From the IMG/VR virus record IMGVR_UViG_3300005617_000177: 64,000 bases of DNA. One strand, given 5' to 3'. Positions within the stretch are counted from its first letter, which is position 1, and each line of letters opens with the position of its first letter. Positions 6,744 through 43,297 of this stretch are shown here, one piece after another. The translations under genes and the position numbers were made by a program. A model generated the notes under the pieces. The model was not told where the DNA came from and made no database searches. It was given only the letters and a program-made list of their open reading frames with translations. This DNA is from an uncultured virus (IMG/VR IMGVR_UViG_3300005617_000177) (lineage: Duplodnaviria > Heunggongvirae > Uroviricota > Caudoviricetes).

Positions 6744-7250
6744 ATGAATTTCATAGAAGACAATCTTATCCGCCAGATCGATCTCGAACGCAGCGGTGTC
6801 GATCAAGAGTCTCTGGAAGATGAAGCCATTCTTTACGAGCATCGCCTGTCTTTTTTCCTTTGGGCGGCTGAAGAATCGTACATGGTGGCCTCTCGCTATC
6901 CAGATAAATCCGATGTCGTTCTTTCGAGATTGGCAGGAGCGTTGGCGATTAGAGAGGCTCTCGAAAGAGAGAGAATCTATGCTCTATGTCGCCGGACTCA
7001 ATTAAGTCAACGCCGCATTAAGCTGTTGACTCCGACTGATCCTATTCGTTTGGAGTTTGAGCATCATGAAGCTCAAATCCGCAAGTTCAAACGAGATAGG
7101 GAAGATCTGGACGCCTGTGTAGGCTCTCGTAAATTCCTTAAGAGTCAGCGCGGATTGATGCGGATCTATCTGAATGCCAAAGGTCGAGGCCAGGAAGCCA
7201 AAATCGATTTTTCGATGAAGTGGCTTGAGGCTGCATATCCGGCCTTTTAG
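6744..7250 (+). CDS. Hypothetical head-module protein
   Basis: 168-aa ORF packed 3 nt after portal. Confidence 0.55.
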   Translation: MNFIEDNLIRQIDLERSGVDQESLEDEAILYEHRLSFFLWAAEESYMVASRYPDKSDVVLSRLAGALAIREALERERIYALCRRTQLSQRRIKLLTPTDPIRLEFEHHEAQIRKFKRDREDLDACVGSRKFLKSQRGLMRIYLNAKGRGQEAKIDFSMKWLEAAYPAF

Positions 7251-7276
7251 TGCAGCTTCCTGTCTGCGCTTAAAAT
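7250..7276 (+). promoter_or_regulatory. Candidate late promoter, copy 1 (GTGCAGCTTCC-N10-TAAAAT)
   Basis: Same 21-nt offset from GTGC to the -10-like hexamer as copies at 9127 and 14067; the next gene lacks an SD (possibly leaderless). Confidence 0.4.
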
Positions 7277-7280
7277 AGAA

Positions 7281-7490
7281 ATGATGCAGGAAGTTTTAGT
7301 CTCACTTCACGTTGATACGACAGCGGTTGATGCCGCCTTAGATCGAATTGGGGCGAGACTTTCAGAGATTTACCGTCAGGCAGTAGAGATTAAACAGTGT
7401 TTGCCTGATGTGTCTGGTGAAGTGGATGCAGTAATAGACAGTCTTGAAACCCTGGTGAGATTAGATCCGCCGACTAAGGAGTCAAAGTGA
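7281..7490 (+). CDS. Hypothetical protein
   Basis: 69 aa; GTGA overlap with next gene. Confidence 0.5.
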   Translation: MMQEVLVSLHVDTTAVDAALDRIGARLSEIYRQAVEIKQCLPDVSGEVDAVIDSLETLVRLDPPTKESK

Positions 7491-11263: not shown

Positions 11264-11292
11264 GGGCGGGCTCGCCGAGTCCGCCCTTTTTT
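11264..11292 (+). terminator. Intrinsic terminator after MCP
   Basis: GGGCGGGCTC-GCC-GAGTCCGCCC stem followed by T6. Confidence 0.85.
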
Positions 11293-11302
11293 GCGAGAAA
11301 AT

Positions 11303-11617
11303 ATGATTCAAGCTTATAGGTGTTCTGCCGGACACGAAACGGAAAGAATCTTTCTTCCCAAGGTGAATCCTACTCGTAAGCCTCTGACAATCGCTTGTCC
11401 TACATGCGGAGCCCGCGCCGTCCGAAGTCAGGGCTGCATAGGATTCGCAAAGCAGACATACGGCCGGAAGTACGGATTTGCTACCGACTCCGATCGTCGG
11501 GATTGGTTGAAGAAGCCTGGTATAGATGGGTGGGTCGGAAAAGAAGGCGAACCACCCAAGAAACCAAAGAGAGTGCACATTCCGCCGCCGCGTCCAAAGA
11601 GATTGAAGGTAGCGTAG
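11303..11617 (+). CDS. FmdB-like zinc-ribbon protein
   Basis: YRCSAGH...CPTCG motif; basic Pro-rich tail. Confidence 0.55.
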   Translation: MIQAYRCSAGHETERIFLPKVNPTRKPLTIACPTCGARAVRSQGCIGFAKQTYGRKYGFATDSDRRDWLKKPGIDGWVGKEGEPPKKPKRVHIPPPRPKRLKVA

Positions 11618-11620
11618 TTT

Positions 11621-12526
11621 ATGCTGTATCTATTGCCATCCGAACTCGATATATTCGCCAGACAGGTCATCACCCAGGATGCTCTGTCGACGGAATTGGG
11701 ACGTCAGGCGATGATACAGCAAGCTTCGAGCGGCGTAGACAGCGCCACAGGGCGTTCCGAATTCGGACTGGAAGTCAGGAACGTCATAGACGAACAGGTT
11801 AATCTCAGTCTCGCTCTGAGTGGGTATTTAAGTAACACTCCATTCATAGAATGGATAGGCTCATCTGCGACTCTGTTCTACTTTGGATACCCTGTTTCTG
11901 TTGGTACTCTCCTGCTTTCGGACTTTTCAGTCGAGAAGAAATCCGGCGTCATTCGAAATCTCACCCGGGTCAATCTCCAGGTTGGCGGTGAAAGTGGGTT
12001 GCGCTTCAGGGGTACGTCTCCTACGTTCCGACCTACGAGTCCATACGGAGTGGCAGGTCAAGCGGAAGAAGCGGCCAGCCCGTATCTCATGACCGTCAGC
12101 TATAAAGCCGGCTACTTCGCTGAGGCGTTAATCGATTCGTCTGGTGGGGTGAATGCAACCGAGATCATTGTCAATGATGTGACGAATCTCATGGTTGGTC
12201 ATGAGTTTTACTTCTCTGCTGACCCCGTGAATGAGCCTACAGTCGATCATCGGTTCATCACGGCAATCAACACAAGCACGCGCGCGGTATCCTTCACGCC
12301 TGCGGTCAAGTATGCTCTGGATGATACTATGACTCTCCGGCAGATTGATAAAGCGGTGCGTTCGGCGACGGCCGATATTATATCGGATTTGTTGACTTTT
12401 CCTCCCAACACAAGAGATTTTTCCAAATCCTTTGGAAGAGGCGACCTGTCAAAACGATGGGTGCGAATGAACGATCAGTTTATTCCGATGATTGCAGCCG
12501 CCAAGCTTAACCGATATGTGAGGTAG
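11621..12526 (+). CDS. Head-tail adaptor (putative)
   Basis: Position after MCP; N-terminal YLLPSEL, VSYKAGY and C-terminal KLNRY typical of adaptors. Confidence 0.55.
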   Translation: MLYLLPSELDIFARQVITQDALSTELGRQAMIQQASSGVDSATGRSEFGLEVRNVIDEQVNLSLALSGYLSNTPFIEWIGSSATLFYFGYPVSVGTLLLSDFSVEKKSGVIRNLTRVNLQVGGESGLRFRGTSPTFRPTSPYGVAGQAEEAASPYLMTVSYKAGYFAEALIDSSGGVNATEIIVNDVTNLMVGHEFYFSADPVNEPTVDHRFITAINTSTRAVSFTPAVKYALDDTMTLRQIDKAVRSATADIISDLLTFPPNTRDFSKSFGRGDLSKRWVRMNDQFIPMIAAAKLNRYVR

Positions 12527-12529
12527 GCT

Positions 12530-12946
12530 ATGCCTGAATCTGGTCCTGCTGCTCTTGCTGAATATAAAGAGCTTTTTCAGGAGCTAGGTACACCTGAAGG
12601 GATGGTTACGCTCAGGCGAATCCATCGTGCGGCGACTGCCTACGCCCCGGCCGTCTCTGATGAGATCCCTCTGTATAAAGTCCTGGTAGACGATTCAGAA
12701 GATCGGCAGTCATTTGGGCTGATGGTATCTGATAGGCGTGTATTTCGAATTTGGGGAGGCGCCATAAGTCCTACCGGCATTCTGGAAGTCACGGAGAGTT
12801 CCTTGAATCAGGCTCGCCTTGCCGGAGGCGGGGTTTTGGAAAATGGAATTCTCTTTAACCTGATGGAATTCCACCGCGGATTCTCCGTTGGTGGGATTGT
12901 GATGCAGTACTTTCTCCTGTGCGATTCGCTTAAACTGGTTTTGTAA
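12530..12946 (+). CDS. Head closure/neck protein (putative)
   Basis: 138 aa, synteny. Confidence 0.45.
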   Translation: MPESGPAALAEYKELFQELGTPEGMVTLRRIHRAATAYAPAVSDEIPLYKVLVDDSEDRQSFGLMVSDRRVFRIWGGAISPTGILEVTESSLNQARLAGGGVLENGILFNLMEFHRGFSVGGIVMQYFLLCDSLKLVL

Positions 12947-33006: not shown

Positions 33007-33608
33007 TGCGACTGCTTTTATCCCCGCACAATGATGATGAAGGTCTATTCGCCAGCATTATCATTCAGCGAATGCGCCCTCTCCTATTAGTCATTGTCAC
33101 AGATTCCTTCATTCAGGAACGCCGTGGCGATCTCATCACATGGCAACAGCGCCGACAAGAAAGCATGGATGCCGCCAAGATCCTAGAAGTGCCTATCTGC
33201 TTTCTAGGATTGCCGGATGCCGAACTCACATCTGAAATGATGTTGGAATCTCTGAAGATCTTTCATCCGAATGATGACGTCATTGCGCCGGCTATCCAGG
33301 GCGGTAATATGAATCATGATGTCGTGGCCGAAGCCGCGCAGAAATACTTCTCTCGTGTTTGGCAGTACGCGACCTACGCCAAAGGCGAATGCTTCACTCC
33401 GATCGCTGCAACGTCTTATCATCCAACGGAACATGAAACTGCCGTGAAGTCTCGGGTCTTGGACTGTTACACCACACAGCTAGCTCTCAGATCTACTAGG
33501 CCACACTTCGATGCAGTCAGAGATCAGCCGGAATACATTTCCTTCTCTGCTCAATCTTCTTTTGACAGACATGACGCGGAATCTACGCAGCCCGCTATTT
33601 GGTCTTAA
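33006..33608 (+). CDS. PIG-L/LmbE family N-acetylsugar deacetylase
   Basis: LSPHNDDE, RRQES, LGLPDA and HDVV motifs. Confidence 0.8.
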   Translation: MRLLLSPHNDDEGLFASIIIQRMRPLLLVIVTDSFIQERRGDLITWQQRRQESMDAAKILEVPICFLGLPDAELTSEMMLESLKIFHPNDDVIAPAIQGGNMNHDVVAEAAQKYFSRVWQYATYAKGECFTPIAATSYHPTEHETAVKSRVLDCYTTQLALRSTRPHFDAVRDQPEYISFSAQSSFDRHDAESTQPAIWS

Positions 33609-33609
33609 T

Positions 33610-34275
33610 ATGCTGAGAAAATTGTTTGTTTGCCCCTGGTTCGGTCCGCTACCACCCTGGTTTGATCGCTACCTGGAACACATAGAGAAGCTCAAACCCT
33701 TGGGTTATGACTGGCTGATCACTACCGACTTGGACGACTTTAGCAAGCGAGTCAAAGATAGATTGGGTCTGGACTGCCCAATCGTTCCCGGCACCGGAAA
33801 GCTGCACGACTACCGCGCGTCCCTCGGTGTGCTCTATGAAGAAGAGATTCGAGGGTACGACTATTGGGGACATACTGATTTCGATTGTTGTTACGGTCGC
33901 ATCGATCAATTCATGCCCGACGAGAAGCTGAGTGCCTGGGACATCTGGTCAAATCATGTCGACTATATCTGCGGTCCTTGGACGCTCTACAAGACCACTC
34001 CATTCCTAGCTGAACTGTTCACGCGCTACGATCGATGGAGGGAGATCCTCTCCGATCCAACCGGAACAGGATGGGTGGAATTTCAAGACGGATTCACAGG
34101 AGTTGTAGATGCAGCGCACGATGCGCACGAGCTTCAAAGACTCTACACTTTTTGGCAGACCAAGAACCTCGATGACTTTTCAAGCTTACGATTAGACGGA
34201 GATGTGCTGTACGAGAATGATCAGGAAGTTATGATGGCGCATTTTAGACGCCGAAAGATTTGGCCGCTATGTTAG
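33610..34275 (+). CDS. DUF6625-like putative glycosyltransferase
   Basis: PWFGPLPPWF, KLHDYR, YDYWGHTDFDCCYG (DxD). Confidence 0.6.
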   Translation: MLRKLFVCPWFGPLPPWFDRYLEHIEKLKPLGYDWLITTDLDDFSKRVKDRLGLDCPIVPGTGKLHDYRASLGVLYEEEIRGYDYWGHTDFDCCYGRIDQFMPDEKLSAWDIWSNHVDYICGPWTLYKTTPFLAELFTRYDRWREILSDPTGTGWVEFQDGFTGVVDAAHDAHELQRLYTFWQTKNLDDFSSLRLDGDVLYENDQEVMMAHFRRRKIWPLC

Positions 34276-34946
34276 AACTCGATAGTTTTCATGGTCTGAA
34301 TATGTTCTATAGATATGGATCTCAGGATTTAATGATTCTGAAAGCTATCTTGCTCTACAATCACTATCAAATTCCAGACGTTGTGTCTGGCACAATGATT
34401 GACATTGGTGCTCACATTGGAGCGGCCTCTGTTCTGTGCTCAAGTCGCGGCGCTCGCGTCTTTGCTTACGAACCAACAACTGAAAGTTTTTCAATACTCA
34501 ACAAGAACATCGATGAGAATAATCTCTCAATCAAAGCCTTTAAGAAAGCCGTGGGTTTGCCGGGTGTTCGAAAGATTTATATGGATCCGGCCAACACAGG
34601 ATCCAATGGTGAATATCTGGTAGTCGGCAATCCGACACTGATTGAAAACGAAGTGCCTTTCGAAGAAGTTGAATGGGTGTCTTTGCAGAACATCTTTCAA
34701 GACAACAATATAGAGCATTGTAGTATTCTTAAATTGGATTGCGAAGGCTCGGAGGCTGATGTTCTACCACAGATTGCGTCGCTCCACGAAAGAATTGATA
34801 CGATCGTCGGAGAGATACATACCGGTATGTGGGCTACAGGCACTCCGGAGCTTAATCAGAAGATTACAAATGGCGTTGATGCATTAAGCGAATTCTATAC
34901 AAAGGAAAGCCTGTCTTTGCATGAGTTCATCTGGACACACAAATAA
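34269..34946 (+). CDS. FkbM family methyltransferase
   Basis: IDIGAHIG, FAYEP, LKLDCEGSE. Confidence 0.88.
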   Translation: MLELDSFHGLNMFYRYGSQDLMILKAILLYNHYQIPDVVSGTMIDIGAHIGAASVLCSSRGARVFAYEPTTESFSILNKNIDENNLSIKAFKKAVGLPGVRKIYMDPANTGSNGEYLVVGNPTLIENEVPFEEVEWVSLQNIFQDNNIEHCSILKLDCEGSEADVLPQIASLHERIDTIVGEIHTGMWATGTPELNQKITNGVDALSEFYTKESLSLHEFIWTHK

Positions 34947-35985
34947 CGCATACGACTCAGTAAGAGACTTCGAAGCGCGGGTGGCTGAATGGGCCGGCGC
35001 TAAGTTTGGCGTTGCGGTCGAATCCTGTACTGCGGCTTTATTTCTGTCCTGCATCTATTTGAAGGTTGGCTACACTGTCATTCCAAAGAGAACGTATCCA
35101 AGCGTTCCTTGCTCGATCTTGAACGCTGGCGGTACCGTGGGCTTCTCTGACGAGGATTGGTCTGGAGTTTACGAACTGAAGCCTTACGGTATCATCGACG
35201 GAGCGCTGCGATTCTGTCGTGGAATGTACCAGGGCGGGCTGCATTGTCTGTCGTTTCATGTAAAGAAACAACTTCCGATCGGTCGCGGCGGAATGATCTT
35301 GACCGATGACGAAGCCGCTGCTCAATGGTTCAAGAGGGCTCGATTCGATGGCAGGGCGGAATTACCCCTGCTGCAAGATGAATACACAATGACTGGTTAC
35401 AACATGTATATGACTCCGGAGCAAGCATCCAGAGGCTTACAGTTGTTCGAACTTCTAAAGAATAAGGAGCTACCAGACTTGAATACCAAGGATCAAGACT
35501 ACCCCGACTTGTCGCAATTCCCAATCTACGGCGCCGGTCTCATCACTCTTCGGAACGTAACGATGGATGATGCTGAAGATCTACTGAGATGGAAAAATGA
35601 AATAGATACGAGACACAATTCTCTTAAACCTGGAGTGATCATTAAGATGGAAGATCACTTGCGGTGGCTTGAAAAGACCCTTGCTGATCCTACTATACAG
35701 TTCTTCATTATAGAGAAAGATGGACAGTCTGTAGGAGATCTGCGATTGAATGAAGGTCGAAAAGAAACTGAAGTCAGCATCCGTCTGGACAAGAAATATC
35801 GCGGACAGGGATTAGCAACTCGGGTAGTAAGCATGGTTCCTCGTGGGAAACCCTTGATGGCTAAGATAGTGCCTCACAACCTGGCATCTATGCGAGTCTT
35901 TATAGCTAATGGCTACAGGCCATCCGAGATTCGTTATGGACAACATTCCTACGACACTCACTACATTTTCAGGAAGCCCCAATGA
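34921..35985 (+). CDS. DegT/DnrJ/PseC-like sugar aminotransferase fused to GNAT acetyltransferase (PseH-like)
   Basis: AVESCTAAL, PLP-lysine motif SFHVKK, GRGGMILTDD; then RGQGLA and NLASMRVF GNAT motifs. Confidence 0.82.
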   Translation: MSSSGHTNNAYDSVRDFEARVAEWAGAKFGVAVESCTAALFLSCIYLKVGYTVIPKRTYPSVPCSILNAGGTVGFSDEDWSGVYELKPYGIIDGALRFCRGMYQGGLHCLSFHVKKQLPIGRGGMILTDDEAAAQWFKRARFDGRAELPLLQDEYTMTGYNMYMTPEQASRGLQLFELLKNKELPDLNTKDQDYPDLSQFPIYGAGLITLRNVTMDDAEDLLRWKNEIDTRHNSLKPGVIIKMEDHLRWLEKTLADPTIQFFIIEKDGQSVGDLRLNEGRKETEVSIRLDKKYRGQGLATRVVSMVPRGKPLMAKIVPHNLASMRVFIANGYRPSEIRYGQHSYDTHYIFRKPQ

Positions 35986-36746
35986 AAGTCATTCTCTCTG
36001 GCTATGAAGGCAGCAAATCAATTCTTAAGGCCAGTTCGTTTCTGGTCGCTCAGTATCTCAACATCGATGGATTCGAATTCTATTGGATGAACTATGGAGA
36101 TCCGGTCCCTCTCTACACAGGTCTGTACGTCAAGTTGGCCGATAAGCAACTCCACGTAAAGTCCTGGGCTGCGGATATACGAAACTACTTGTCATCTGTT
36201 CAGGATGACTTGATCATATTCGCTTTGGATGATTACCTGATTGCTGGCAGTCTCAATTGGAATCAATATTTGAAGCTAATCCATAAGCTGAACACCAATC
36301 CAGCCATTGTGAGTGCCCGGCTCTGTATCAGCGATTTCTACAAATCATCTGAGATCGACCGGATCGAATCTGATTCATTTGGCGAGATCATTCAGTTGAG
36401 CGCCAGTGCAGAATATTCTGTTACTACACAGTACTGCATTTGGAAAAGACATGCTCTTATGGATGTCCTTTCTGAAGTAGAGACTCCATGGGAATTCGAA
36501 ACCCAAGGATCCAACTATTTGAATTCCACTGGTATGCAGGTGATCGGTTACAGACCGAACCCGCCTCTGATCTACAACTGTTCGAGCTCTCTTTCGACTC
36601 GCTGGCCAGGAATTAACATAAGTGGCAGTAGTCTTGAAGACATAGAGTATCTTGTCTCGGTAGGAGACTTGAATCGAAGCGACCTTACAAACCGAGGACA
36701 TGCCGTTCAATGGGGTAGCACCCATTCAATAGCGGAGGCCATGTGA
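35982..36746 (+). CDS. Putative glycosyltransferase (GT-A-like)
   Basis: IIFALDDY, Q..IW, TPWEFE pattern; cluster context. Confidence 0.55.
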   Translation: MKVILSGYEGSKSILKASSFLVAQYLNIDGFEFYWMNYGDPVPLYTGLYVKLADKQLHVKSWAADIRNYLSSVQDDLIIFALDDYLIAGSLNWNQYLKLIHKLNTNPAIVSARLCISDFYKSSEIDRIESDSFGEIIQLSASAEYSVTTQYCIWKRHALMDVLSEVETPWEFETQGSNYLNSTGMQVIGYRPNPPLIYNCSSSLSTRWPGINISGSSLEDIEYLVSVGDLNRSDLTNRGHAVQWGSTHSIAEAM

Positions 36747-37606
36747 TTACTATTCAAGGCAATAAAGTTGTTTTGTTCGGCGGTAGCGGATTTCTCGCCG
36801 GCGCCCTGATTCCGCGACTGCAAGCGGCCGGCGCCAGTGATATTCTCTGTGTGGCTCGCAACGAAGGAAACCTCATTAAAACTCAGCAGCAATACGGAGT
36901 TGAGATCCTAAGCGGCGACGTCGCCGATCGGTGTATTGCAGCCAGGGCGATAGATACTGGAGACATTGTGATGAACTTGGCTGCGTTCAAGCATGTTGGA
37001 TTAGCCGAGACTTCCAGCTTCCAATGTGCCAGGAGCAACGTTATGGGTTTAATGACGTTGCTAACAGAAACAATGCTGCCTGAACTCGAGATCAAGGCAT
37101 TTCTTTTTATCTCGACGGACAAGGCAGCGGCTCCTGTGAAAGGTGTGTATGGTGCTACAAAGTTCCTCGGGGAGCGTCTGGTGCAGGAAGCAGCACATAC
37201 TAATCCTCAAACAGCTTATCGTATTGTCCGCTATGGTAACATCCTCTATTCCACAGGTTCAGTTCTGTGTAAATGGAAAGACGCCCTGGCGCGCGGTCAG
37301 GCTCTAACTATCACCGATCCTGATGCAACCAGGTTCTACTGGACTGCGGATCAAGCGGTTGATTTAATCTTTGAATGCTTTGAGAAAGCCATCGATTGCT
37401 CGCCTTACATAGGCGAAATGAAAGCCATTAGAATGGGCGATCTGCTCGAAGCAATGATTCAGAAGTATGGTAATGGAACAAGGCCAGCAATTGTTCAAAG
37501 CGGATTGCAGCCAGGTGAAAGTAAACATGAGATTTTGGTCGAGTCTGGGTTGAATTCACAAGAAGCCGAACAGTATACTCCCGAAGAAGTTCTGGCTCTT
37601 ATATGA
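36743..37606 (+). CDS. UDP-GlcNAc 4,6-dehydratase (PseB/CapD/PglF, Polysacc_synt_2-like)
   Basis: GGSGFLA, AAFKHV, STDKA, YGATK, RYGNI..STGSV, TDPDATRF, GLQPGESKHE. Confidence 0.88.
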   Translation: MITIQGNKVVLFGGSGFLAGALIPRLQAAGASDILCVARNEGNLIKTQQQYGVEILSGDVADRCIAARAIDTGDIVMNLAAFKHVGLAETSSFQCARSNVMGLMTLLTETMLPELEIKAFLFISTDKAAAPVKGVYGATKFLGERLVQEAAHTNPQTAYRIVRYGNILYSTGSVLCKWKDALARGQALTITDPDATRFYWTADQAVDLIFECFEKAIDCSPYIGEMKAIRMGDLLEAMIQKYGNGTRPAIVQSGLQPGESKHEILVESGLNSQEAEQYTPEEVLALI

Positions 37607-38199
37607 ACATCACGGCTTGTTTAATAACTTACAAACGCCCCAATAACATTGGGCCGATCGTATCTCATTTACTCCAACAACCATTCATCGATACGGTGGT
37701 TGTTCGAGACAACGCCAAGAACAATTCCAACGTCTACGGGCGATATGAACTAGCCAGACAAGCACCTTCTGATATTGTTTATGTCCAGGATGATGACTGC
37801 ATTGTGCACGATATTGAACAGATCTATCAAACTTTTGTGAATGATCCAGAGCGCATCGCTTTTGGATTAGCTCCTACCCACCATCCGGTTTGGCATTTAT
37901 ATACATTTCCTGAGACTCAACTTGCTATGGTTGGATGGGGCGCATTCTTTAAGCGAGACTGGATTGATCTAGCCTTCAATAGGTACTTTCAACATCATGA
38001 GCTCGACGCATTTTCCCGGCGAGAGGCTGACAGGATTTTTTCCCTGATGCTTGCGCGTCAACACAATTCGATTCTGTCCTCCAATCTCGAGCATCTTCCT
38101 GGTTGTTCTGATGGAGATGCAATGTCCAAAGAAGCCGATCATTTTAATTCGCGCGCCCGGGCAATCGAACAATGTCTTGCCATTCTAAGGAATCAATGA
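37603..38199 (+). CDS. Glycosyltransferase (GT-A/GT2-like)
   Basis: ITYKRP, VYVQDDD. Confidence 0.7.
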   Translation: MNITACLITYKRPNNIGPIVSHLLQQPFIDTVVVRDNAKNNSNVYGRYELARQAPSDIVYVQDDDCIVHDIEQIYQTFVNDPERIAFGLAPTHHPVWHLYTFPETQLAMVGWGAFFKRDWIDLAFNRYFQHHELDAFSRREADRIFSLMLARQHNSILSSNLEHLPGCSDGDAMSKEADHFNSRARAIEQCLAILRNQ

Positions 38200-38912
38200 G
38201 AGTCGATCTTCTATATTTGGCAAAGAACCGGCTAGAATTCACGAAAGAATCATTCTCAGCTTTACTGTCCAACACCGATTGGGATCTCGTTAAGTCTTTC
38301 TATGTCTACGATGATGGCTCAACGGATGGAACCGCTGAATACCTGACCGATACTATCATTGCCAACCGTGAGATCCTTCCAGACAAAACGGTTCTCAGAC
38401 AGACGGACTTCGGCTCTCCTGTCAGAATTACCAATGATTTTGTGGTTCAGGTTGATTCGCCTCTGTTAGCCAAGATCGACAATGATATAGTTGTTCCGGA
38501 GAAGTGGTTGACTCGATGCGTTCAAGTGATGGATGGCAGTCCAGAGCTTCAATGTTTGGGCATCGAGGCGTTCTATGAAATCGAACCAGATGTAACAGTA
38601 TGTCGTGGATGGATACGAGCCATTCACACTGGCGGCATTGGTCTCTTTCGAAGAGCGCCGTTTGAAGAAGTGTTGCCTATTGCATACGGAACCTATTTCG
38701 GATTCGGCAACTGGCAGCAACGCGGAGACGGACTCATGTGCGGCTGGATTAAACCGTCTCTTCCTGTATTCTTATTAGACCGGCTCCCTTTTGAGCCCTT
38801 CCGATCTTTGACTCTTTCGTACATAGAGAAGGGCTGGCAGCGAGATTGGGGGCCTTACGATTCATCACAACAAGATCTTTGGACCTGGAGATTCCCGAAC
38901 GAAAGGGGGTGA
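38196..38912 (+). CDS. Glycosyltransferase family 2
   Basis: YDDGSTDGT, KIDND. Confidence 0.8.
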   Translation: MRVDLLYLAKNRLEFTKESFSALLSNTDWDLVKSFYVYDDGSTDGTAEYLTDTIIANREILPDKTVLRQTDFGSPVRITNDFVVQVDSPLLAKIDNDIVVPEKWLTRCVQVMDGSPELQCLGIEAFYEIEPDVTVCRGWIRAIHTGGIGLFRRAPFEEVLPIAYGTYFGFGNWQQRGDGLMCGWIKPSLPVFLLDRLPFEPFRSLTLSYIEKGWQRDWGPYDSSQQDLWTWRFPNERG

Positions 38913-39187
38913 TGAAAGTGGACAACCGACAGCCAGAGTTGGGCGAAGTTGTGAAATGGCACGATCCAACTGGTGTGGAGCATACGGCCCTCGTAACAGC
39001 CGTGTGGACTCCAACCTGTATCAATCTTGTCGTCGTCAGTCATGACGAAAAGAAGAAGGATGAATACGGTCGCCAGATCGAGCGCTACACTTCACAGCAG
39101 CACAAGTCTGTCATGAATGTGCATGGCTTCTATTGGCGGTTTATCGATGAAGAACCGAACGGCTACACCGCTCCGCTTGCGAACTAA
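38912..39187 (+). CDS. Hypothetical phage protein
   Basis: 91 aa, GGGGG SD, ALVTAVW..CINLVV. Confidence 0.6.
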   Translation: MKVDNRQPELGEVVKWHDPTGVEHTALVTAVWTPTCINLVVVSHDEKKKDEYGRQIERYTSQQHKSVMNVHGFYWRFIDEEPNGYTAPLAN

Positions 39188-39244
39188 CCTTTAACCCGGC
39201 GCCGGAACCGACCAGGAACCACAAAGACGCCGGCCGTAGATACT

Positions 39245-39571
39245 ATGACAAGTTTACAGGAATTGTTGGATAGGTCTGAGCCATTTTGCTTGAATTGTGG
39301 TAGTCCACTTCAATGTAGTTGTGGATTTCAACTCACAGAAGAAGTATCTTGGTATAAGACAACTGCCGCATTGTATCATCGGAGAAGCCCTCTGTATTTC
39401 GAGAGGCTAGTTGCTGAGGCTGAGTCTCAATTAGCTAAGGCTAGGGCTCAGTTACCTAGACTTCCCGATTCCGAACCACTTATTGGCAATCGAAAAATCA
39501 GATTCGCACCAGAAGAGATGGAGCCGACTTATGAGAGAACGAACTGTTTGCCAGATGCGAATCAAGAATGA
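39245..39571 (+). CDS. Cys-rich hypothetical protein
   Basis: CLNCG..CSC. Confidence 0.5.
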   Translation: MTSLQELLDRSEPFCLNCGSPLQCSCGFQLTEEVSWYKTTAALYHRRSPLYFERLVAEAESQLAKARAQLPRLPDSEPLIGNRKIRFAPEEMEPTYERTNCLPDANQE

Positions 39572-40391
39572 AGAACGGTGGATTCGCCGATCTTTAGAGC
39601 GCACTTGGAAGGTTTGCCAAACAGTGGTTATCTTCGATGATGGCTCGGAAGATAAAACACAGGAAGAAGCGTATGCAAGCTTTACTGTGAACCATACATT
39701 GCATACACGTTCTGGTGTTCGCATTTTCCAAGGCGAGTCAGAACGCGGTCCTTGCGAACTTCATTATATCCATTCACCTTTTACTCAAGCTGTTCGTCCT
39801 AAAGAACGTGTCAATGAGAACCGGGACAAGAACATCTTGAATTCGTACTGCAAAAGCACGATCGACTATGATTATGTTCTATGTTTAGATGGCGACGAGA
39901 TGCTCAGTAATTCCGCTGTCCGGCAATTCCCTGACGTCTGGAACTTCCTCGACAACCATTGCGACATCGTTGTTCTAACGTTTGTTTATCTGTGGGATGC
40001 AGAGAATCTAAGACGAGTCGACGGAATATACGGCCCACCAAGCGGTATTTCTCAGCTTCGATTCCCTCGAGTCTATACAATCAAGAGGCTTGAGGAATAT
40101 GATCTGTTCAATCTCAGCTTTGCTTGGGGAGGCGCAAGGGGTGGTGGCTTCCACTGTGGTTCTATTCCCACCCAAAACTTCACGACTTCATTGGGTGGCG
40201 CGTCCAAAACCATTGATGCTCCAGTAGTTCACTTCGGATACATCGACAATCCTCTCCGGCAAAGAAAGTATGTCTGGTACAACACTATAGATCCCGGTAA
40301 TGAACACGAAGGCTGTTACAGGCATATCATTGGCGAGGCAGATCAGTGGGCACCGGGACCAGTCGAACTTCAGCCCTGGGAAGATTCATGA
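39531..40391 (+). CDS. Glycosyltransferase family 2
   Basis: KNEERWI, DDGSEDKT, LDGDE, VVHFGY. Confidence 0.8.
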   Translation: MRERTVCQMRIKNEERWIRRSLERTWKVCQTVVIFDDGSEDKTQEEAYASFTVNHTLHTRSGVRIFQGESERGPCELHYIHSPFTQAVRPKERVNENRDKNILNSYCKSTIDYDYVLCLDGDEMLSNSAVRQFPDVWNFLDNHCDIVVLTFVYLWDAENLRRVDGIYGPPSGISQLRFPRVYTIKRLEEYDLFNLSFAWGGARGGGFHCGSIPTQNFTTSLGGASKTIDAPVVHFGYIDNPLRQRKYVWYNTIDPGNEHEGCYRHIIGEADQWAPGPVELQPWEDS

Positions 40392-41851
40392 TTTCTATAG
40401 TCATTCCTTCTTGCACAAACGAGCACCTTGCACGATTGTTGGAATCCATTGAGGTTAGCTCCCCTGGTCTTGGAACTTCCAAGATTCAACAAGTGATGGC
40501 CTCGCCAAATTATCGCGCAGTGTTCCCCTGGGTGTATAACGCGGTGCCTTCTATTGTCATAGGAGATAACGGTCTTTCAGATTCTTTTCGTGAAGAATAT
40601 GCTCCTAAAGGAATCTCTTTTGTCACTGTACATGAACCTTTCATCTTTGCTCGCGCGATAAATTCTTGCGTAGCAACCCTTCCTCCAGAACACGATATTC
40701 TTATTCTCAATGATGATGCGATCATAACCAGTCCTAATTTCGAAGAAGATCTTACCCGTCTCTTGTCCAAGCCGCGGACTCGGCGCTTCGGAATTGTCAG
40801 TCTTAAATTGAGCGGAGGCGTGGCCGGCAACAGGGAACAAATGGAAGATGTCGCAGCCGATGACATTGTATTGACTCGACGCACAGTTTGTTTCATTGCC
40901 GTAGTGATTCGCCGTGAAGTATGGAATCAAATAGGCGGCATGGATGAATCGTTTGTTGGGTATGGATTTGAGGACACAGATTATTGTCGCCGTGCCGTTA
41001 ATGCTGGTTGGCTCTTAGGTATTACAGGAGCGGCCTCTATCGAGCATGGGTTTGGAACTTCCGTGATGAGTAGCACGTTCAGACGAAAACATGGAACGGA
41101 TGGGCATTCTCACCTGTATATTCAAAACCATAACATCTTCAAAGATAAATGGGGCGAAGGGCCTCAGCTAGGAGATTACGAAACTATGCCTATAGTATGT
41201 GACGATAGCGAAGAACCTCTTAGCTCGGGGACTTCGTTTGGTCTCAAAGAACTAAGAAGCCGAGAGCAGTTTACAGCCCAAGCTCCTATGCCAGACAAGA
41301 CCCTCGGTCTTGAATCTGATCTCGAGGCTGATGCTGAATTGCTATGGGCGATTACAAGCCTTGTCAAACCTCAGACGCTTATTGAACTCGGCACTCGTGA
41401 GGGTGTGAGTACTCGTATTCTTGTACTGGCCGCACAACAAGCAAGAGAAGAAGCGAAGATCATAACTATTGATCCTGATTCAACCTGTGCAGACTTTATT
41501 CAAGATCTGGATTGTGAGTTCTATTCAATGAAAGCTGAAGACTTCCTTGCCGGCCTATCTCCGGAAAAGCGTGAAGCTCTCAAGGCGGATATGTTGTTCA
41601 TCGACACCGACCCGCACGACTACCAGCAGACTCTCATGTGGTTGAACACCTGGGTGTCAACCATGCTTCGTCCTGGTGGCTGCGCGCTGTTTCATGATGT
41701 GGTCAGCAATCGGCCGGAGATACAGGTACGCGCGGCCGTTGAGTCTTGGGTGCACGATCACACTGATTGGGAATGGATTGTGTTCCCGGTGCCGGAGAAG
41801 GAATACAAGTGGGCCCAAGGAGGTCTAGGACTTCTCTGGGCCCCAGAATAG
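40388..41851 (+). CDS. GT2 glycosyltransferase fused to class I SAM methyltransferase (Methyltransf_24-like)
   Basis: ISIVIP, ILNDD, GGMDESFVGYGFEDTDY; then IELGTREGVS, LFIDTDPHDY, LRPGG..FHD. Confidence 0.85.
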   Translation: MISIVIPSCTNEHLARLLESIEVSSPGLGTSKIQQVMASPNYRAVFPWVYNAVPSIVIGDNGLSDSFREEYAPKGISFVTVHEPFIFARAINSCVATLPPEHDILILNDDAIITSPNFEEDLTRLLSKPRTRRFGIVSLKLSGGVAGNREQMEDVAADDIVLTRRTVCFIAVVIRREVWNQIGGMDESFVGYGFEDTDYCRRAVNAGWLLGITGAASIEHGFGTSVMSSTFRRKHGTDGHSHLYIQNHNIFKDKWGEGPQLGDYETMPIVCDDSEEPLSSGTSFGLKELRSREQFTAQAPMPDKTLGLESDLEADAELLWAITSLVKPQTLIELGTREGVSTRILVLAAQQAREEAKIITIDPDSTCADFIQDLDCEFYSMKAEDFLAGLSPEKREALKADMLFIDTDPHDYQQTLMWLNTWVSTMLRPGGCALFHDVVSNRPEIQVRAAVESWVHDHTDWEWIVFPVPEKEYKWAQGGLGLLWAPE

Positions 41852-42175
41852 TTACAGCAAGGGTATGCCCCTAAAGAGTTTGCCATCGGCCGAGGGATGA
41901 ACCGCCAAAGCGGTCTTCTGATTTCCAATATCAGGTTCTACGAACGCTTCGCAAGTAATCCCTCGAAGCTTCAGTTCTTCTTCCCACAACAACAGATCGG
42001 CCTCAGTAACTCCTAGAAGCACGAGTGTTTGATGTTCTACTGCCCACTCTCGGATCTACGGATCGGTTCCGTGAATGAGCATAAGGTTAGCCAAAGCATG
42101 ACACGATTGGACCGCTCGCTGTGCGCAGGAAAGATCCTGTCGTACCAGGATAAAGAGCTTAAGCGGTCTTGGCAT
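41852..42175 (-). CDS. Pth2/PTRHD1-fold peptidyl-tRNA hydrolase-like protein with in-frame TAG at codon 40
   Basis: Hand translation: MPRPLKLFILVRQDLSCAQRAVQSCHALANLMLIHGTDP*IREWAVEHQTLVLLGVTEADLLLWEEELKLRGITCEAFVEPDIGNQKTALAVHPSADGKLFRGIPLL. GAGGT SD; TAG at 42056-42058. Confidence 0.8.
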
Positions 42176-42707
42176 TTTCACTTACCTCTTTGAAATGCTC
42201 GGACAGTTTCACCCATGTCTCTGTGTCGACAAACTTCTCAGGATGCTTCGTGAGGCGATTGTCTAACTTCCGGAGATATCGGTGGGCCGCACGGACGTGC
42301 GACTTCGGATTCTTGCCGGCGTGACAAAATATTCTCTGTGCATTGGCTGTATAGGGACGCAGTGATTGCGGTCCTAGAAGCAATTCAATCTGTTCGGAAT
42401 CTGGTACAGCATCATCGCTTAGCTTCAGTAGGACTCTTGCTGTAAGCAGCGCTGAGACTTGTCTCTTTTCATCCTGATAGCGCCTCCAGTCAGGATGTTT
42501 GGGTGAGATAGTCTCAACGACTTTTTCAGTTTCGACTTTGCTTGGGGTGTAGCTCGGGATTCTCGACTCGGTGACGGTCTTGCCATCAGGAGAAGTATAT
42601 ATGATCTTACTTTCCTTTTTGGTCTTCCGTGCGCCGACTTTGATTGAGAAGATCCGATCGGCGTGAACGCGGATCGCATGCTGGACTACTTGCGTAATTG
42701 TAACCAT
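42159..42707 (-). CDS. Basic hypothetical protein coupled to the Pth2-like gene
   Basis: 182 aa, AAGGAG SD, overlaps the Pth2-like start. Confidence 0.7.
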   Translation of the reverse strand: MVTITQVVQHAIRVHADRIFSIKVGARKTKKESKIIYTSPDGKTVTESRIPSYTPSKVETEKVVETISPKHPDWRRYQDEKRQVSALLTARVLLKLSDDAVPDSEQIELLLGPQSLRPYTANAQRIFCHAGKNPKSHVRAAHRYLRKLDNRLTKHPEKFVDTETWVKLSEHFKEVSENAKTA

Positions 42708-42761
42708 CGTTGTCTCCTTAGTTTCGAGTTAGTAGATTGAACCGAATAGACAGCGATGGGT

Positions 42762-42788
42762 TTACGGCGGTCGTTTGGTCTATAACAT
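42762..42788 (-). promoter_or_regulatory. Leader minigene ATG TTA TAG ACC AAA CGA CCG CCG TAA (M-L-amber-T-K-R-P-P)
   Basis: Strong SD (AAAGGAG) 6 nt upstream; ends in RPP-stop if TAG is read through. Confidence 0.7.
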
Positions 42789-42819
42789 CTGTCTCTCCTT
42801 TCAATCTAAGATCATACAA

Positions 42820-42892
42820 TACGTCGTTCGGGATTCGAACCCGAATCCAGGGTTTTAGAGACCCCGTGCTCTAACCATTGAGCTAACGACGC
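42820..42892 (-). tRNA. Amber suppressor tRNA (anticodon CUA), CCA not encoded
   Basis: Cloverleaf GCGTCGT-TA-GCTC-AATGGTTA-GAGC-A-CGGGGT-CTCTAAA-ACCCTG-GAT-TCGGG-TTCGAAT-CCCGA-ACGACGT-A; anticodon at 42856-42858. Confidence 0.9.
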
Positions 42893-42897
42893 ACAAC

Positions 42898-42985
42898 TGC
42901 GTGCGGCGAACCCGGTTGGGATAAGACTCGCAATCCCTGTCATCTAAGGCTCCGGTAGGTTATGCCATTCACCTAGCCGCACGCA
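42898..42985 (-). ncRNA. Structured small RNA or degenerate tRNA-like element
   Basis: Perfect 10-bp closing stem TGCGTGCGGC/GCCGCACGCA; D-arm-like TAGGT-GAATGGCATA-ACCTA; CCGG/CCGG and GGGAT/ATCCC stems. Confidence 0.55.
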
Positions 42986-42991
42986 TGCTCG

Positions 42992-43297
42992 TTACTTCTT
43001 GGCCGTTGCTGCTTTCTCGAGGACGCCGAGAATCTCTTCCTCTCGCAAGATCAGGAAGTCCGTGCCTTCGATCTTGATGTCGGCGCCGCCGTATTTGGCG
43101 AACAGCACGCGATCTCCTACCTTGACGTCGACCGGGACAACCACGCCCGATTCTGTCAAGAAGCCTTTGCCCACAGCTACAACTTCGCCTTGCTGTGGTT
43201 TCTCTTTTGCGTTGTCGGGAATATGAATCAGCCCGACCTGATCTGCCTGCTCAATCCTCCGGATCACTATCCGGTTTCCCAAGGGACGAATGTTCAT
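42992..43297 (-). CDS. groES: Co-chaperonin GroES
   Basis: IRPLGNRIVI, IPDNAKEKPQQGEVVAVG, VKVGDRVLFAKYGG, LILREEEILGV. Confidence 0.95.
   Translation of the reverse strand: MNIRPLGNRIVIRRIEQADQVGLIHIPDNAKEKPQQGEVVAVGKGFLTESGVVVPVDVKVGDRVLFAKYGGADIKIEGTDFLILREEEILGVLEKAATAKK

Follow-up and report, generated by a model that had tools for sequence, protein, structure and literature searches.

The 64,000-nucleotide stretch of DNA analysed here, referred to below as the window, carries a very short leader open reading frame (ORF) with an early in-frame TAG, placed between a suppressor tRNA gene and two overlapping genes, the second of which resembles peptidyl-tRNA hydrolase 2 (PTH2). We believe that this leader is probably a translational switch gated by read-through, which would report decoding by the suppressor tRNA and gate the genes behind it. 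The evidence is largely comparative and comes from the recurrence of the leader in other phages, the match between its sensor codon and the tRNA anticodon, and a predicted helix that would mask the next translation start.

The leader and its neighbouring genes

The leader lies on the minus strand (42788..42762) and reads ATG TTA TAG ACC AAA CGA CCG CCG TAA, that is M-L-TAG-T-K-R-P-P-TAA, eight codons and a stop. Sequence and pattern match place its Shine-Dalgarno (SD) sequence, AAAGGAG (42801..42795, minus), 6 nt ahead of the leader ATG. The sensor codon is the TAG at codon 3 (42780..42782, minus), with A as the next base, and the leader closes with CCG CCG TAA (42762..42770, minus), two prolines and the terminal stop, a putative site of slow termination. 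A spacer of 54 nt (42761..42708) then leads to the ATG of a 182-aa gene at 42707. This confirms, on the minus strand, the arrangement given in a preliminary description of the sequence, namely AAAGGAG, 6 nt, M-L-TAG-T-K-R-P-P-TAA and 54 nt to the 182-aa gene. A scan for promoters and terminators gave nothing informative near the window leader, and no Rfam family covers leader or spacer, either in the window or in 17 loci. The contigs of four other runs are identical to the window over the parts that they cover, with no variation among them.

Upstream of the leader, on the same strand and 30 nt away, is a suppressor tRNA gene with anticodon CUA, which reads UAG (42819..42893, minus; ARAGORN; Rfam RF00005, 62 bits). 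The first gene behind the leader, which encodes the 182-aa protein (42159..42707, minus), is an ORF with no Pfam match. Homologues of its product are P0002 (67%), P0003 (40%) and the protein of L009 (36%), and there is another in L103; a search of viral contigs with the protein returned no relative, and the ESM Atlas gave no usable match. In most other loci the position of the 182-aa gene is filled by the 'HIAY' family, and hhalign found no homology between that family and the window 182-aa family.

The second gene (41852..42175, minus) overlaps the end of the 182-aa gene and is PTH2-like (Pfam PF01981; PHROGs 1866 and 3668). Its match to PF01981 (E 3e-7; 31 bits, cut-off 23) spans both halves of the gene across an in-frame TAG at 42058..42056. 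In the corresponding column, L103 and L034 also have TAG and L009 has CAG (Gln). An AlphaFold model of a fused relative, L039 (pLDDT 90), matched 2zv3, 3erj, 1xty and 1q7s with a Foldseek probability of 1.0, and these matches are chains of archaeal Pth2 and human Bit1. Judged by domain match and predicted fold, the downstream gene belongs to the PTH2 (PF01981) family and encodes a putative enzyme.

The TAG of the PTH2-like gene is the only clear in-frame TAG in the window, which covers 64 kb of the roughly 75-kb contig, and 19 of 68 large ORFs terminate in TAG. These two observations speak against reassignment of TAG (code 15) in this phage. With TAG as the terminator of so many large ORFs, the window phage would pay a high price for strong suppression.

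Recurrence of the leader in other phages

By itself the short form of the leader is unremarkable, since AGGAG-N4-9-ATG-NNN-TAG is expected 0.22 times per window and is present at least once in 20 of 100 window shuffles; the full form with CCN-CCN-TAA was found in 0 of 100. The argument against chance is thus a comparative one, drawn from related sequences. The exact 27-nt leader sequence had 0 matches in viral contigs. A search of the same contigs with the pattern AGGAG-N4-9-ATG-NNN-TAG-N9-CCN-CCN-TAA gave 24 loci, with tRNA(CUA) at most 2 kb away in 17 and on the same strand in 16; we judged 22 of the 24 genuine and two (L030 and L031) chance. In 596 Gb of prokaryote genomes the same pattern matched 19 times. 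Genuine cases were confined to L103 and L105 (L105 and L023 are one contig), and the remaining 17 matches had neither tRNA(CUA) nor a PTH2-like domain. Two relatives of the window, L009 and L103, carry tRNA(CUA), a leader of the form M-X-TAG-x3-P-P-TAA, a homologue of the 182-aa gene and a PTH2-like gene, and form a clade with it.

A second set of 38 loci was assembled blind to the leader, through the downstream-protein peptide H[IV]AYC[LM][AL]R. A TAG-bearing leader lies upstream in 37 of the 38 (29 identified by script and 8 by eye, then parsed), the exception being L048, and Pro-Pro directly precedes the stop in 33. On the same strand, tRNA(CUA) is found downstream in 31 of these loci, and a PTH2-like domain is present in 36, so the leader has a strong genomic link with this domain. 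Among the 28 loci that were both new and unique, 27 have the leader and 23 have Pro-Pro-stop. Other new unique loci end in G-P-stop (L051), P-P-E-stop (L059) or P-P-Y-I-stop (L064), or have no P-P (L060); L051, L059 and L064 keep the TAG and the helix described below.

The shared design, then, is a strong SD, a start, usually one more codon, TAG, a codon that begins with a purine, a few further codons that mostly end in K/R-P-P, and a stop. Thirty-seven unique leaders were tabulated, most of them 7–12 codons long and with a strong SD ahead. The first TAG comes after 1–8 codons, with exactly two in 25 of the 37 leaders, and codon 2 shows no conservation; from the first TAG to the stop there are five intervening codons in 25 of the 37. 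The base after the first TAG is a purine in 36 of the 37 leaders, as opposed to 9 of 18 cases where an ordinary ORF of the window terminates in TAG. Position -3 is occupied by K in 23 leaders and by R in 3 out of the 37, giving the consensus K-P-P-stop, and all four Pro codons occur at both Pro positions. The terminal stop is TAA in 29 leaders, TAG in 5 and TGA in 3, and the gap to the next start is 44–71 nt in 36 of 37. Residue -3, the purine after TAG, Pro codon choice, the stop and the spacing are features that the search did not impose, and on such comparative grounds we conclude that the recurrence of the leader is not a matter of chance. In the five leaders of the TAG type that also terminate in TAG, the final stop is readable by the suppressor too.

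These data alter the preliminary description in two respects. It had seen the leader as a two-codon minigene like those of lambda bar, and such a unit is not conserved, given that the TAG follows 1–8 codons, that the second codon is free, and that in-frame codons beyond the TAG are kept. The last of these would be pointless if translation always stopped at the TAG. It had also likened the ending to RAPP/RGPP motifs, against which the consensus, K/R-P-P directly before a stop, speaks; any pause would therefore occur at termination, on an 8-residue chain. Its further suggestion, that Pth substrates arise in either state, is possible. Conservation of the leader upstream of homologues, the absence of which the preliminary description had named as counting against it, was found.

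Several other candidates were set aside. GenBank phages gave no match in blastn with the window locus or in tblastn with the L017 fusion protein. Loci found through GroES (L001–L008) have no adjoining tRNA and are not syntenic, and L010 and L011, which came from a metagenome scan, proved spurious, one being a CBS-domain protein and the other a ThyX-like gene. Lak phages combine tRNA(UUA) and a PTH2-like gene with a helical protein and a small ORF that contains an in-frame TAA; as the endings of the ORF differ between Lak-B7 and Lak-A2/C1, we do not count these phages as members. Cronobacter phage GAP32 has a leader-like M-L-TAG...P-P with no stop after P-P and no tRNA(CUA) nearby, and we treat this sequence as degenerate or different.

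The sensor codon and the tRNA anticodon

A TGA variant of the pattern was found at 11 loci, three of which have tRNA(UCA) on the same strand. The protein downstream of one of the TGA/UCA leaders (L082) is 62% identical to that of a TAG/CUA locus (L014), and that of another (L088) is 56% identical to its TAG/CUA counterpart (L024). In two pairs of homologous modules, therefore, the sensor codon changes along with the tRNA anticodon. The TAA-sensor pattern had three matches (two unique), none with a tRNA, and we took these as chance.

A predicted masking helix at the start of the next gene

In the window, the minimum free energy (MFE) fold and duplex prediction pair two arms on the minus strand. 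The 5' arm (42748..42765) begins in the last Pro codon, includes the stop codon and continues for 14 nt beyond it; the 3' arm (42700..42715) takes in the final 2 nt of the SD core and the spacer, then the ATG of the 182-aa gene with the 5 nt after it. The duplex has an energy of -16.4 kcal/mol, and the window's own 3' arm is the best partner among 38; the equivalent arms of L009 and L103 give -20.1 and -23.5 kcal/mol. As a hairpin alone the window structure is ordinary (MFE -17.1 kcal/mol, z = 0.37; 119 of 200 shuffles give an equally stable or more stable fold), and it covers the start codon but only 2 nt of the SD core.

The pairing is a property of the set as a whole. In MFE folds of the 38 unique leaders, the segment after the stop pairs with the SD or start of the next gene. 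Mean duplex energies over the 38 are -12.3 kcal/mol for cognate and -7.0 kcal/mol for non-cognate arms, and the cognate arm is the top partner in 18 and among the best three in 26 (permutation p <= 1e-4), whereas control segments gave -4.1 cognate vs -3.1 non-cognate. At least two of the four SD-core bases are paired in 36 of 37 loci, and the flanking pairs of the helix show compensatory variation with all Watson-Crick types. RNAalifold, run on a MAFFT alignment of 14 leaders, returned no consensus structure (0 pairs), since that alignment does not bring the arms into register; the evidence for covariation thus rests on the anchored duplex analysis, of sequences that are phylogenetically related.

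The geometry of the helix also suits a switch. The ribosome footprint is reported to reach +12 nt in the available text of PMC3834316. With this value, a ribosome standing on the terminal stop covers a mean of 83% of the pairing partners in the 5' arm (minimum 53%), and one at the sensor TAG covers none of them in 35 of 37 loci.

A model for the leader

Based on these observations, we propose that the leader has two states. With weak or no suppression, the ribosome would be released at the codon 3 TAG, far from the helix; the SD and start would stay masked, and the 182-aa gene and the overlapping PTH2-like gene would remain untranslated. When tRNA(CUA) beats the release factor, the ribosome would read five more codons and arrive at Pro-Pro-TAA. 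Slowed there, it would cover the 5' arm of the helix, so that the SD and start of the 182-aa gene would be freed and initiation could follow. In the clade of the window, the in-frame TAG of the PTH2-like gene may act as a second gate. That the leader has two states and controls the genes downstream, as the preliminary description already proposed, is supported in this form by conservation upstream of homologues, by retention of Pro-Pro-stop and by pairing of the arm with the next ribosome-binding site. The Pro-Pro-stop pause has been documented on E. coli proteins and would have to hold for an 8-residue chain in the hosts of these phages.

More tentatively, leader, suppressor tRNA and PTH2-like gene, joined by a small partner protein that varies, might form a self-contained feedback controller of genetic-code switching, in which the PTH2-like output acts back on the translation apparatus. 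We regard this wider reading as possible rather than likely. The leader would gauge how suppressor tRNA and release factor compete at any moment for the cognate stop, and the PTH2-like product might clear the peptidyl-tRNA that arises from read-through and from the Pro-Pro-stop pause or, alternatively, trim the suppressor pool. The phage would in this way keep suppression at a fixed level, or commit to it at a defined time, and sensor codon and anticodon would evolve in step with each other, as seen in the homologous modules that exist in TAG/CUA and TGA/UCA versions.

Alternative explanations

The same read-through gate might operate with no pause, if the terminating ribosome melts the helix in passing and reinitiates, or hands over, at the next start. 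Such coupling would sit well with the helix in the window, L009 and L103, which sets the downstream start codon opposite the leader stop, and with the three loci (L051, L059 and L064) that retain TAG and helix with no Pro-Pro at the stop. Pro-Pro would then be kept for another reason, or merely for fine-tuning. We consider this unlikely, given that Pro-Pro-stop occurs in 23 of the 28 new unique blind-set loci with free choice of Pro codon, which points to the peptide, or tRNA-Pro at the step of termination, as the object of selection; a known termination-slowing motif is the simplest account of Pro-Pro, and the next gene has its own SD, 44–71 nt away. Less probable again is a leader that acts mainly on transcription, in which untranslated mRNA past the TAG is exposed to Rho and suppression restores transcription of the genes that follow, the suppressor tRNA included where it lies downstream, closing a positive feedback loop. 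The tRNA(CUA) gene downstream of the leader-controlled genes, on their strand, in 31 of 38 blind-set loci would fit such a loop, and engineered switches with UAG in the leader act in this manner via tna and trp leaders, according to the available text of PMC6412442. However, the tRNA gene is upstream of the leader in the window, L009, L014/L019/L032, L027, L028 and L082, the minus strand from leader to gene lacks a terminator-like hairpin with a T run, and the conserved helix takes in the SD and start, a translational target. Transcriptional control could be an added layer in some loci.

Readings that give the post-TAG part of the leader no role fare worse. That the leader is a toxic minigene like bar, with peptidyl-tRNA drop-off used against the host and the PTH2-like enzyme as the remedy, strikes us as very improbable. 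It would explain why exactly two codons precede the TAG in 25 of 37 leaders, why their SDs are strong and why the PTH2-like domain is linked in 36 of 38 blind-set loci, but not why the second codon is free and 1–8 codons may precede the TAG; the conserved post-TAG codons, the purine, K/R-P-P-stop and the codon-anticodon match would all be irrelevant to a two-codon ORF. Moreover, the PTH2-like gene would go untranslated in the proposed off state, and the window copy also needs its own TAG to be read. We give practically no credence to a functionless short ORF that arose by chance in a tRNA trailer or intergenic spacer: the expected frequency of the short form (0.22 per window) and the ordinary hairpin (z 0.37) would allow it, and the conservation and other comparative data contradict it. 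We retain the read-through-gated switch with a pause at Pro-Pro-stop as the probable explanation.

Significance

The leader bears on how phages with suppressor tRNAs time and dose stop-codon read-through. Published proposals, as far as the accessible portions of those sources go, are code-change modules and ribozyme-processed tRNAs, and we found no description of a cis-acting sensor in the literature on phage suppressor tRNAs. If our reading is true, the leader is a natural sensor of suppression efficiency, about 100 nt long, that needs just a suppressor tRNA and a ribosome. It ties phage PTH2 genes, which had been noted previously, to suppressor tRNAs, and it provides a sequence signature with which to find suppressor modules and predict the stop codon that a phage tRNA reads. 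Its recurrence in dozens of phages offers a way to study phage control of code change, and the synthetic amber-codon switches that serve genetic code expansion would have in it a natural counterpart.

Comparison with known systems

The cat, cmlA and ermC leaders unmask the SD of a resistance gene when a drug stalls the ribosome on the leader ORF. The likeness lies in a short upstream leader ORF with its own SD, and in a next ribosome-binding site held in a hairpin whose 5' arm is at the leader end; as in the cat/cmlA/erm type, the next SD and start are sequestered within reach of a ribosome on the leader, and we propose that a ribosome halted on the leader would open the hairpin here too. The difference is that theirs responds to a drug acting on the nascent chain, whereas here read-through by a suppressor tRNA would bring the ribosome to park at Pro-Pro-stop. 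The lambda bar minigenes need Pth, and RAPP/RGPP (ApdA/ApdP) and SecM cause elongation arrest with Pro-tRNA in the A site and a chain long enough for exit-tunnel contact. Our leaders share with these a very short ORF with a strong SD and a proline-rich ending after a basic residue. In contrast to bar, a two-codon ORF is not the conserved unit and, unlike the elongation-arrest peptides, the window has R-P-P followed by a stop and most leaders have 7–12 codons.

Closer parallels exist at the termination step. C-terminal Pro-Pro hampers termination of YbeL-PP in E. coli (PMC3834316), and TnaC, with Pro-stop and inhibition of RF2, is used for regulation in tna (PMC8450073). From the portions of these reports available, the common element is slow termination with peptidyl-prolyl-tRNA in the P site and a stop in the A site, and the predicted window peptide has Pro-Pro as its last residues, the C-terminal stalling context. 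The leader differs in that no small-molecule ligand is implied, that the chains mostly have 7–12 residues and that the SD would be unmasked rather than Rho excluded. The prfB gene (RF2) is autoregulated through an in-frame UGA near the gene start (PMC12421855, available text). There too an early in-frame stop gauges release factor against alternative decoding and sets the expression of a translation factor, but by a +1 frameshift inside its own gene with RF2 as output, whereas here tRNA suppression, a separate leader, a helix and other genes would be involved.

The phage 'code change module' groups a suppressor tRNA, an aminoacyl-tRNA synthetase and also a release factor beside lysis genes (bioRxiv 10.1101/2021.08.26.457843). 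It too is a gene cluster centred on a phage suppressor tRNA and has a link with stop-codon reassignment; in the accessible part of that preprint there is no mention of a leader ORF, a Pro-Pro motif, a masking helix or PTH2. Finally, engineered switches for unnatural amino acids place UAG in a leader and require an amber suppressor tRNA for downstream expression (PMC6412442). As far as the available text of that report describes them, they resemble our leader in that a TAG in a leader peptide ties downstream expression to an amber suppressor tRNA. However, they are synthetic, based on trp and tna, and transcriptional, whereas the leader described here occurs naturally, is widespread among phages and has the anatomy of a translational device.

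Results

The leader lies on the minus strand at 42788..42762 and reads ATG TTA TAG ACC AAA CGA CCG CCG TAA, with AAAGGAG 6 nt before the ATG, which confirms the sequence and place given in the preliminary description. Upstream on the same strand are a GroES-like gene (43297..42992; Pfam Cpn10, E 6e-29) and a tRNA gene with anticodon CUA (42893..42819), 30 nt from the AAAGGAG. Downstream, also on the minus strand and after a 54-nt spacer, come the 182-aa ORF (42707..42159), which is without a Pfam family, and a PTH2-like ORF (42175..41852) that overlaps its 3' end and whose Pfam match to PF01981 (E 3e-7, residues 5-97 of 107) crosses an in-frame TAG at 42058..42056.

A large terminase, DNA polymerase, DnaB-type helicase and endolysin mark the window as phage DNA. 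Because TAG is an ordinary terminator there, ending 19 of 68 large ORFs, the phage is not globally TAG-reassigned on the 64 kb seen. Its sequence recurs in contigs from several rhizosphere metagenome runs; over the parts covered, 42100..42950 has zero differences from contigs of four other such runs, and two runs also contain unrelated contigs that match the window in the tRNA core (42829..42863) and nowhere else. Converging on the leader operon is a plus-strand run of sugar-modification genes (33511..41851), comprising a methyltransferase, an aminotransferase/acetyltransferase, a nucleotide-sugar epimerase, several glycosyltransferases and a 501-aa glycosyltransferase-methyltransferase fusion. 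Elsewhere on the plus strand, three consecutive ORFs of 108, 301 and 138 aa (11291..12946) share a single frame, with TAG plus one codon and then ATG between each pair, and ORFs of 168 and 69 aa (6744..7490) are in frame across TAG; no family match was found across these junctions, and the arrangements may have arisen by chance or may serve programmed read-through in structural genes.

Taken from the window alone, the evidence for the leader is weak. SD-ATG-NNN-TAG would turn up 0.22 times per window by chance, the full pattern including CCN-CCN-TAA arose in 0 of 100 shuffles, and the local hairpin of the leader is not unusual (z = 0.37). The case is built on comparison with other sequences. 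Scanning IMG/VR with AGGAG-N4-9-ATG-NNN-TAG-N9-CCN-CCN-TAA returned 24 loci, representing 18 unique leaders. A tRNA(CUA) gene lies within 2 kb in 17 of the 24 and on the leader's strand in 16; five further loci without one in that range (L020, L021, L033, L023 and L035) have the same downstream gene families as the others, the first three being near-identical to L014. The matches L030 and L031 seem to be coincidental. In 596 Gb of prokaryote genomes the identical pattern matched only 19 times, and two of these matches are genuine (L103 and L105, the latter on the same contig as L023); the remaining 17 lack both tRNA(CUA) and a PTH2-like domain and show no preference for a purine after the TAG (9/17). 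As a measure of background, a TAA-sensor pattern matched three times in IMG/VR, never with a tRNA.

Relatives of the 182-aa protein are few (P0002, 67%; P0003, 40%). On the metagenome contig L009, a homologue that is 36% identical stands in the window's gene order: tRNA(CUA), AGGAGG, the leader M-M-TAG-Q-A-Q-P-P-TAA, a 63-nt spacer, the homologue and a PTH2-like gene. L103, from the bin of a Pyrinomonadaceae MAG, has the leader M-L-TAG-S-A-H-P-P-TAA, the homologue and the PTH2-like gene, with tRNA(CUA) downstream. In all three loci the start-codon region of the 182-aa gene or its homologue pairs with bases just past the leader stop, with duplex energies of -16.4 (window), -20.1 (L009) and -23.5 kcal/mol (L103). 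The PTH2-like genes of the window (42056..42058, minus strand), L103 (2659..3000) and L034 carry TAG at one shared alignment column (D-P-TAG-I/V-x-x-W), where L009 has CAG (Gln); this fits, and does not prove, that the TAG is read as Gln. In-frame TAG occurs in 4 of the 45 unique PTH2-like domains among the loci.

Directly after the leader in most loci is a small helical protein with R..HIAYxxxRGRTxEQIE (the HIAY family), for which Pfam gave no match; a PTH2-like gene comes next or is fused to it. Searching IMG/VR by the peptide pattern of this protein only, blind to the leader, yielded 38 loci, 5 on contigs already found and 28 both new and unique. A TAG-bearing leader ORF lies upstream in 37 of the 38 (27 of the 28), Pro-Pro stands immediately 5' of its stop in 33 (23 of the 28), a PTH2-like domain (custom-built HMM, E at most 1e-3) is present in 36, and tRNA(CUA) lies downstream on the same strand in 31. 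The script found 29 of the 37 leaders, while the eight with TAG at codon 4 or later were read by eye and then parsed. Exceptions are L048, without a leader; L051, L059 and L064, ending G-P-stop, P-P-E-stop and P-P-Y-I-stop, respectively; and L060, which is long and without P-P. Since the 182-aa and HIAY families are not detectably homologous (hhalign probability 0.1), the protein in the post-leader slot varies, and what stays constant across the modules is the set of suppressor tRNA, leader and PTH2-like domain.

Leader anatomy was counted over 37 unique Pro-Pro-stop leaders, 14 of which came out of the pattern search and so had some features fixed in advance. Two codons precede the first TAG in 25 leaders (range 1-8), and three leaders parsed with two internal TAGs. 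The base 3' of the first TAG is A in 21, G in 15 and C in one, in contrast to the ordinary TAG terminators of the window, where a purine follows only 9 of 18. A 3' purine favours amber suppression, and the bias would be in keeping with a codon designed for suppression. The next codon is mostly Val, Ile or Met, and the terminal stop (TAA 29, TAG 5, TGA 3) comes 5 codons after the first TAG in 25 of 37, with a minimum of 4. All four Pro codons occur at both positions, and the gap to the next start is 44-71 nt in 36 of 37. The spread in codons before the TAG and the patterned in-frame part after it give no support to the bar-like two-codon minigene of the preliminary description, nor is its comparison with RAPP-type arrest motifs borne out, as the leaders end K/R-P-P-stop (residue -3: K in 23, R in 3 of 37).

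With TGA in place of TAG, the pattern matched 11 loci (8 unique). A same-strand tRNA(UCA) accompanies three of the 11, and the other eight (5 unique leaders) have no nearby tRNA. L082 (leader M-L-TGA-V-Y-A-P-P-TAA, tRNA(UCA) 12 nt upstream) encodes a downstream protein 62% identical (E 3e-53) to that of L014, which has a TAG leader and tRNA(CUA); likewise, the protein of L088 (M-K-TGA-V-H-K-P-P-TAG, tRNA(UCA) downstream) is 56% identical (E 2e-37) to that of L024, again with a TAG leader and tRNA(CUA). The third such locus, L084, has a PTH2-like domain. Because codon and anticodon have switched together in two independent cases within homologous modules, the internal stop is probably read by the linked tRNA; the switches would otherwise be hard to explain.

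Minimum-free-energy folding of the segment that begins at the Pro codons and reaches +15 in the next gene gave one long-range hairpin in 38 of 38 unique leaders, its 5' arm beginning -9 to +3 relative to the first base past the leader stop and its 3' arm formed by that gene's SD, its start codon or both. As the primary sequences of the arms differ widely, pairing specificity was tested by swapping partners. Mean duplex energy was -12.3 kcal/mol for cognate and -7.0 for non-cognate arms, with control segments taken upstream of the TAG and from mid-spacer at -4.1 and -3.1, respectively; the cognate arm ranked first of 38 partners in 18 loci and third or better in 26 (permutation p at most 1e-4, for related sequences and with the program picking the best pairing of each arm pair). 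With the duplexes anchored on the SD core, CUCC-like bases face GGAG, 36 of 37 loci have at least two of the four core bases in pairs, and flanking positions show all Watson-Crick pair types. RNAalifold, given a plain MAFFT alignment, detected no consensus structure.

Several variants were seen. The fused-PTH2 subfamily has a tRNA-like gene that encodes its own CCA end and has an irregular anticodon arm, its 3' end 10-15 nt before the leader SD (L039, about 1190..1270; same place in L040, L054, L056, L057, L058 and L068; L017, 2048..2126, minus strand); ARAGORN assigns inconsistent anticodons, and the L017 copy matches the Rfam tRNA model with 45 bits. Lak-B7 (L075, 1341..2300), Lak-A2 (L111) and Lak-C1 (L112) have tRNA(UUA), a small ORF with in-frame TAA (M-K-L-Q-H/F-W-TAA-V-T...), a helical protein and a PTH2-like gene; the small ORF ends R-G-P-stop in Lak-B7 and differently in Lak-A2/C1, and the arrangement is possibly the module's ochre-type counterpart. 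In Cronobacter phage GAP32 (L074, 2434..2520), ATG-CTA-TAG is followed in frame by ...G-P-P-D-K..., without a stop after P-P, upstream of GAP32_440, which is homologous to the L028-type small protein; no tRNA(CUA) was found near it, and it is possibly a degenerate leader in a cultured phage. L076 (LR745206, a 635-kb uncultured phage genome) has a 15-codon leader at 1829..1876, M-M-TAG-I-N-T-Y-Y-N-F-V-V-V-P-P-TAA, about 125 nt upstream of the start of a PTH2-like match, with no tRNA found within 2 kb.

Discussion

The AlphaFold model of the fused form in L039 (pLDDT 90, pTM 0.81) has two parts: an N-terminal helical domain without a structural match, and a C-terminal domain predicted to resemble, with a Foldseek probability of 1.0, archaeal Pth2 and human Bit1. 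PTH2 of jumbo phages was noted earlier and proposed to aid ribosome rescue, in a text that does not mention suppressors (PMC7824862). If made only under suppression, the enzyme could clear peptidyl-tRNA of read-through and non-stop events, and in L020 (256..601) and L027 (432..789) a tmRNA gene is found no more than 2 kb from the leader; another option is that the enzyme resolves the Pro-Pro-stop pause itself, which would amount to autoregulation, and a third that the pool of suppressor tRNA is its target. L028 has a GOLLD RNA (1155..1610, 176 bits) 300 nt upstream of tRNA(CUA) and leader.

That the leader controls the downstream genes, as had been suggested, has strong comparative support; how it would do so we infer from the anatomy, of which the simplest reading is a two-state switch. 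C-terminal Pro-Pro disturbs termination and arrested ribosomes in all contexts tested, with peptidyl-prolyl-tRNA in the P site of the paused ribosome and mRNA trimming at +12 nt past the stop codon, according to PMC3834316. With +12 as the boundary, a ribosome on the terminal leader stop covers a mean of 83% (minimum 53%) of the pairing 5'-arm bases, and in 35 of 37 loci a ribosome that has the sensor TAG in its A site reaches none of them. After release at the sensor codon, the ribosome-binding site of the next gene would stay masked; on read-through, a slowly terminating ribosome would sit on the masking arm and unmask it.

In a search of the titles, abstracts and main-text passages of open literature, we found no description of a leader ORF with an in-frame stop beside phage suppressor tRNAs, nor one in the searched passages of the Borges preprint, the theta-ribozyme paper or the jumbo-phage review. 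The proposed kind of control is known, namely leader-peptide translational attenuation, and what would be new here is the input signal. The proposed switch shares the logic of the cat, cmlA and erm attenuators and differs from them in that its signal would be stop-codon suppression. It echoes prfB, where an early in-frame stop gauges release-factor activity, and it has a synthetic equivalent in the TAG engineered into trp and tna leaders, as described in PMC6412442.
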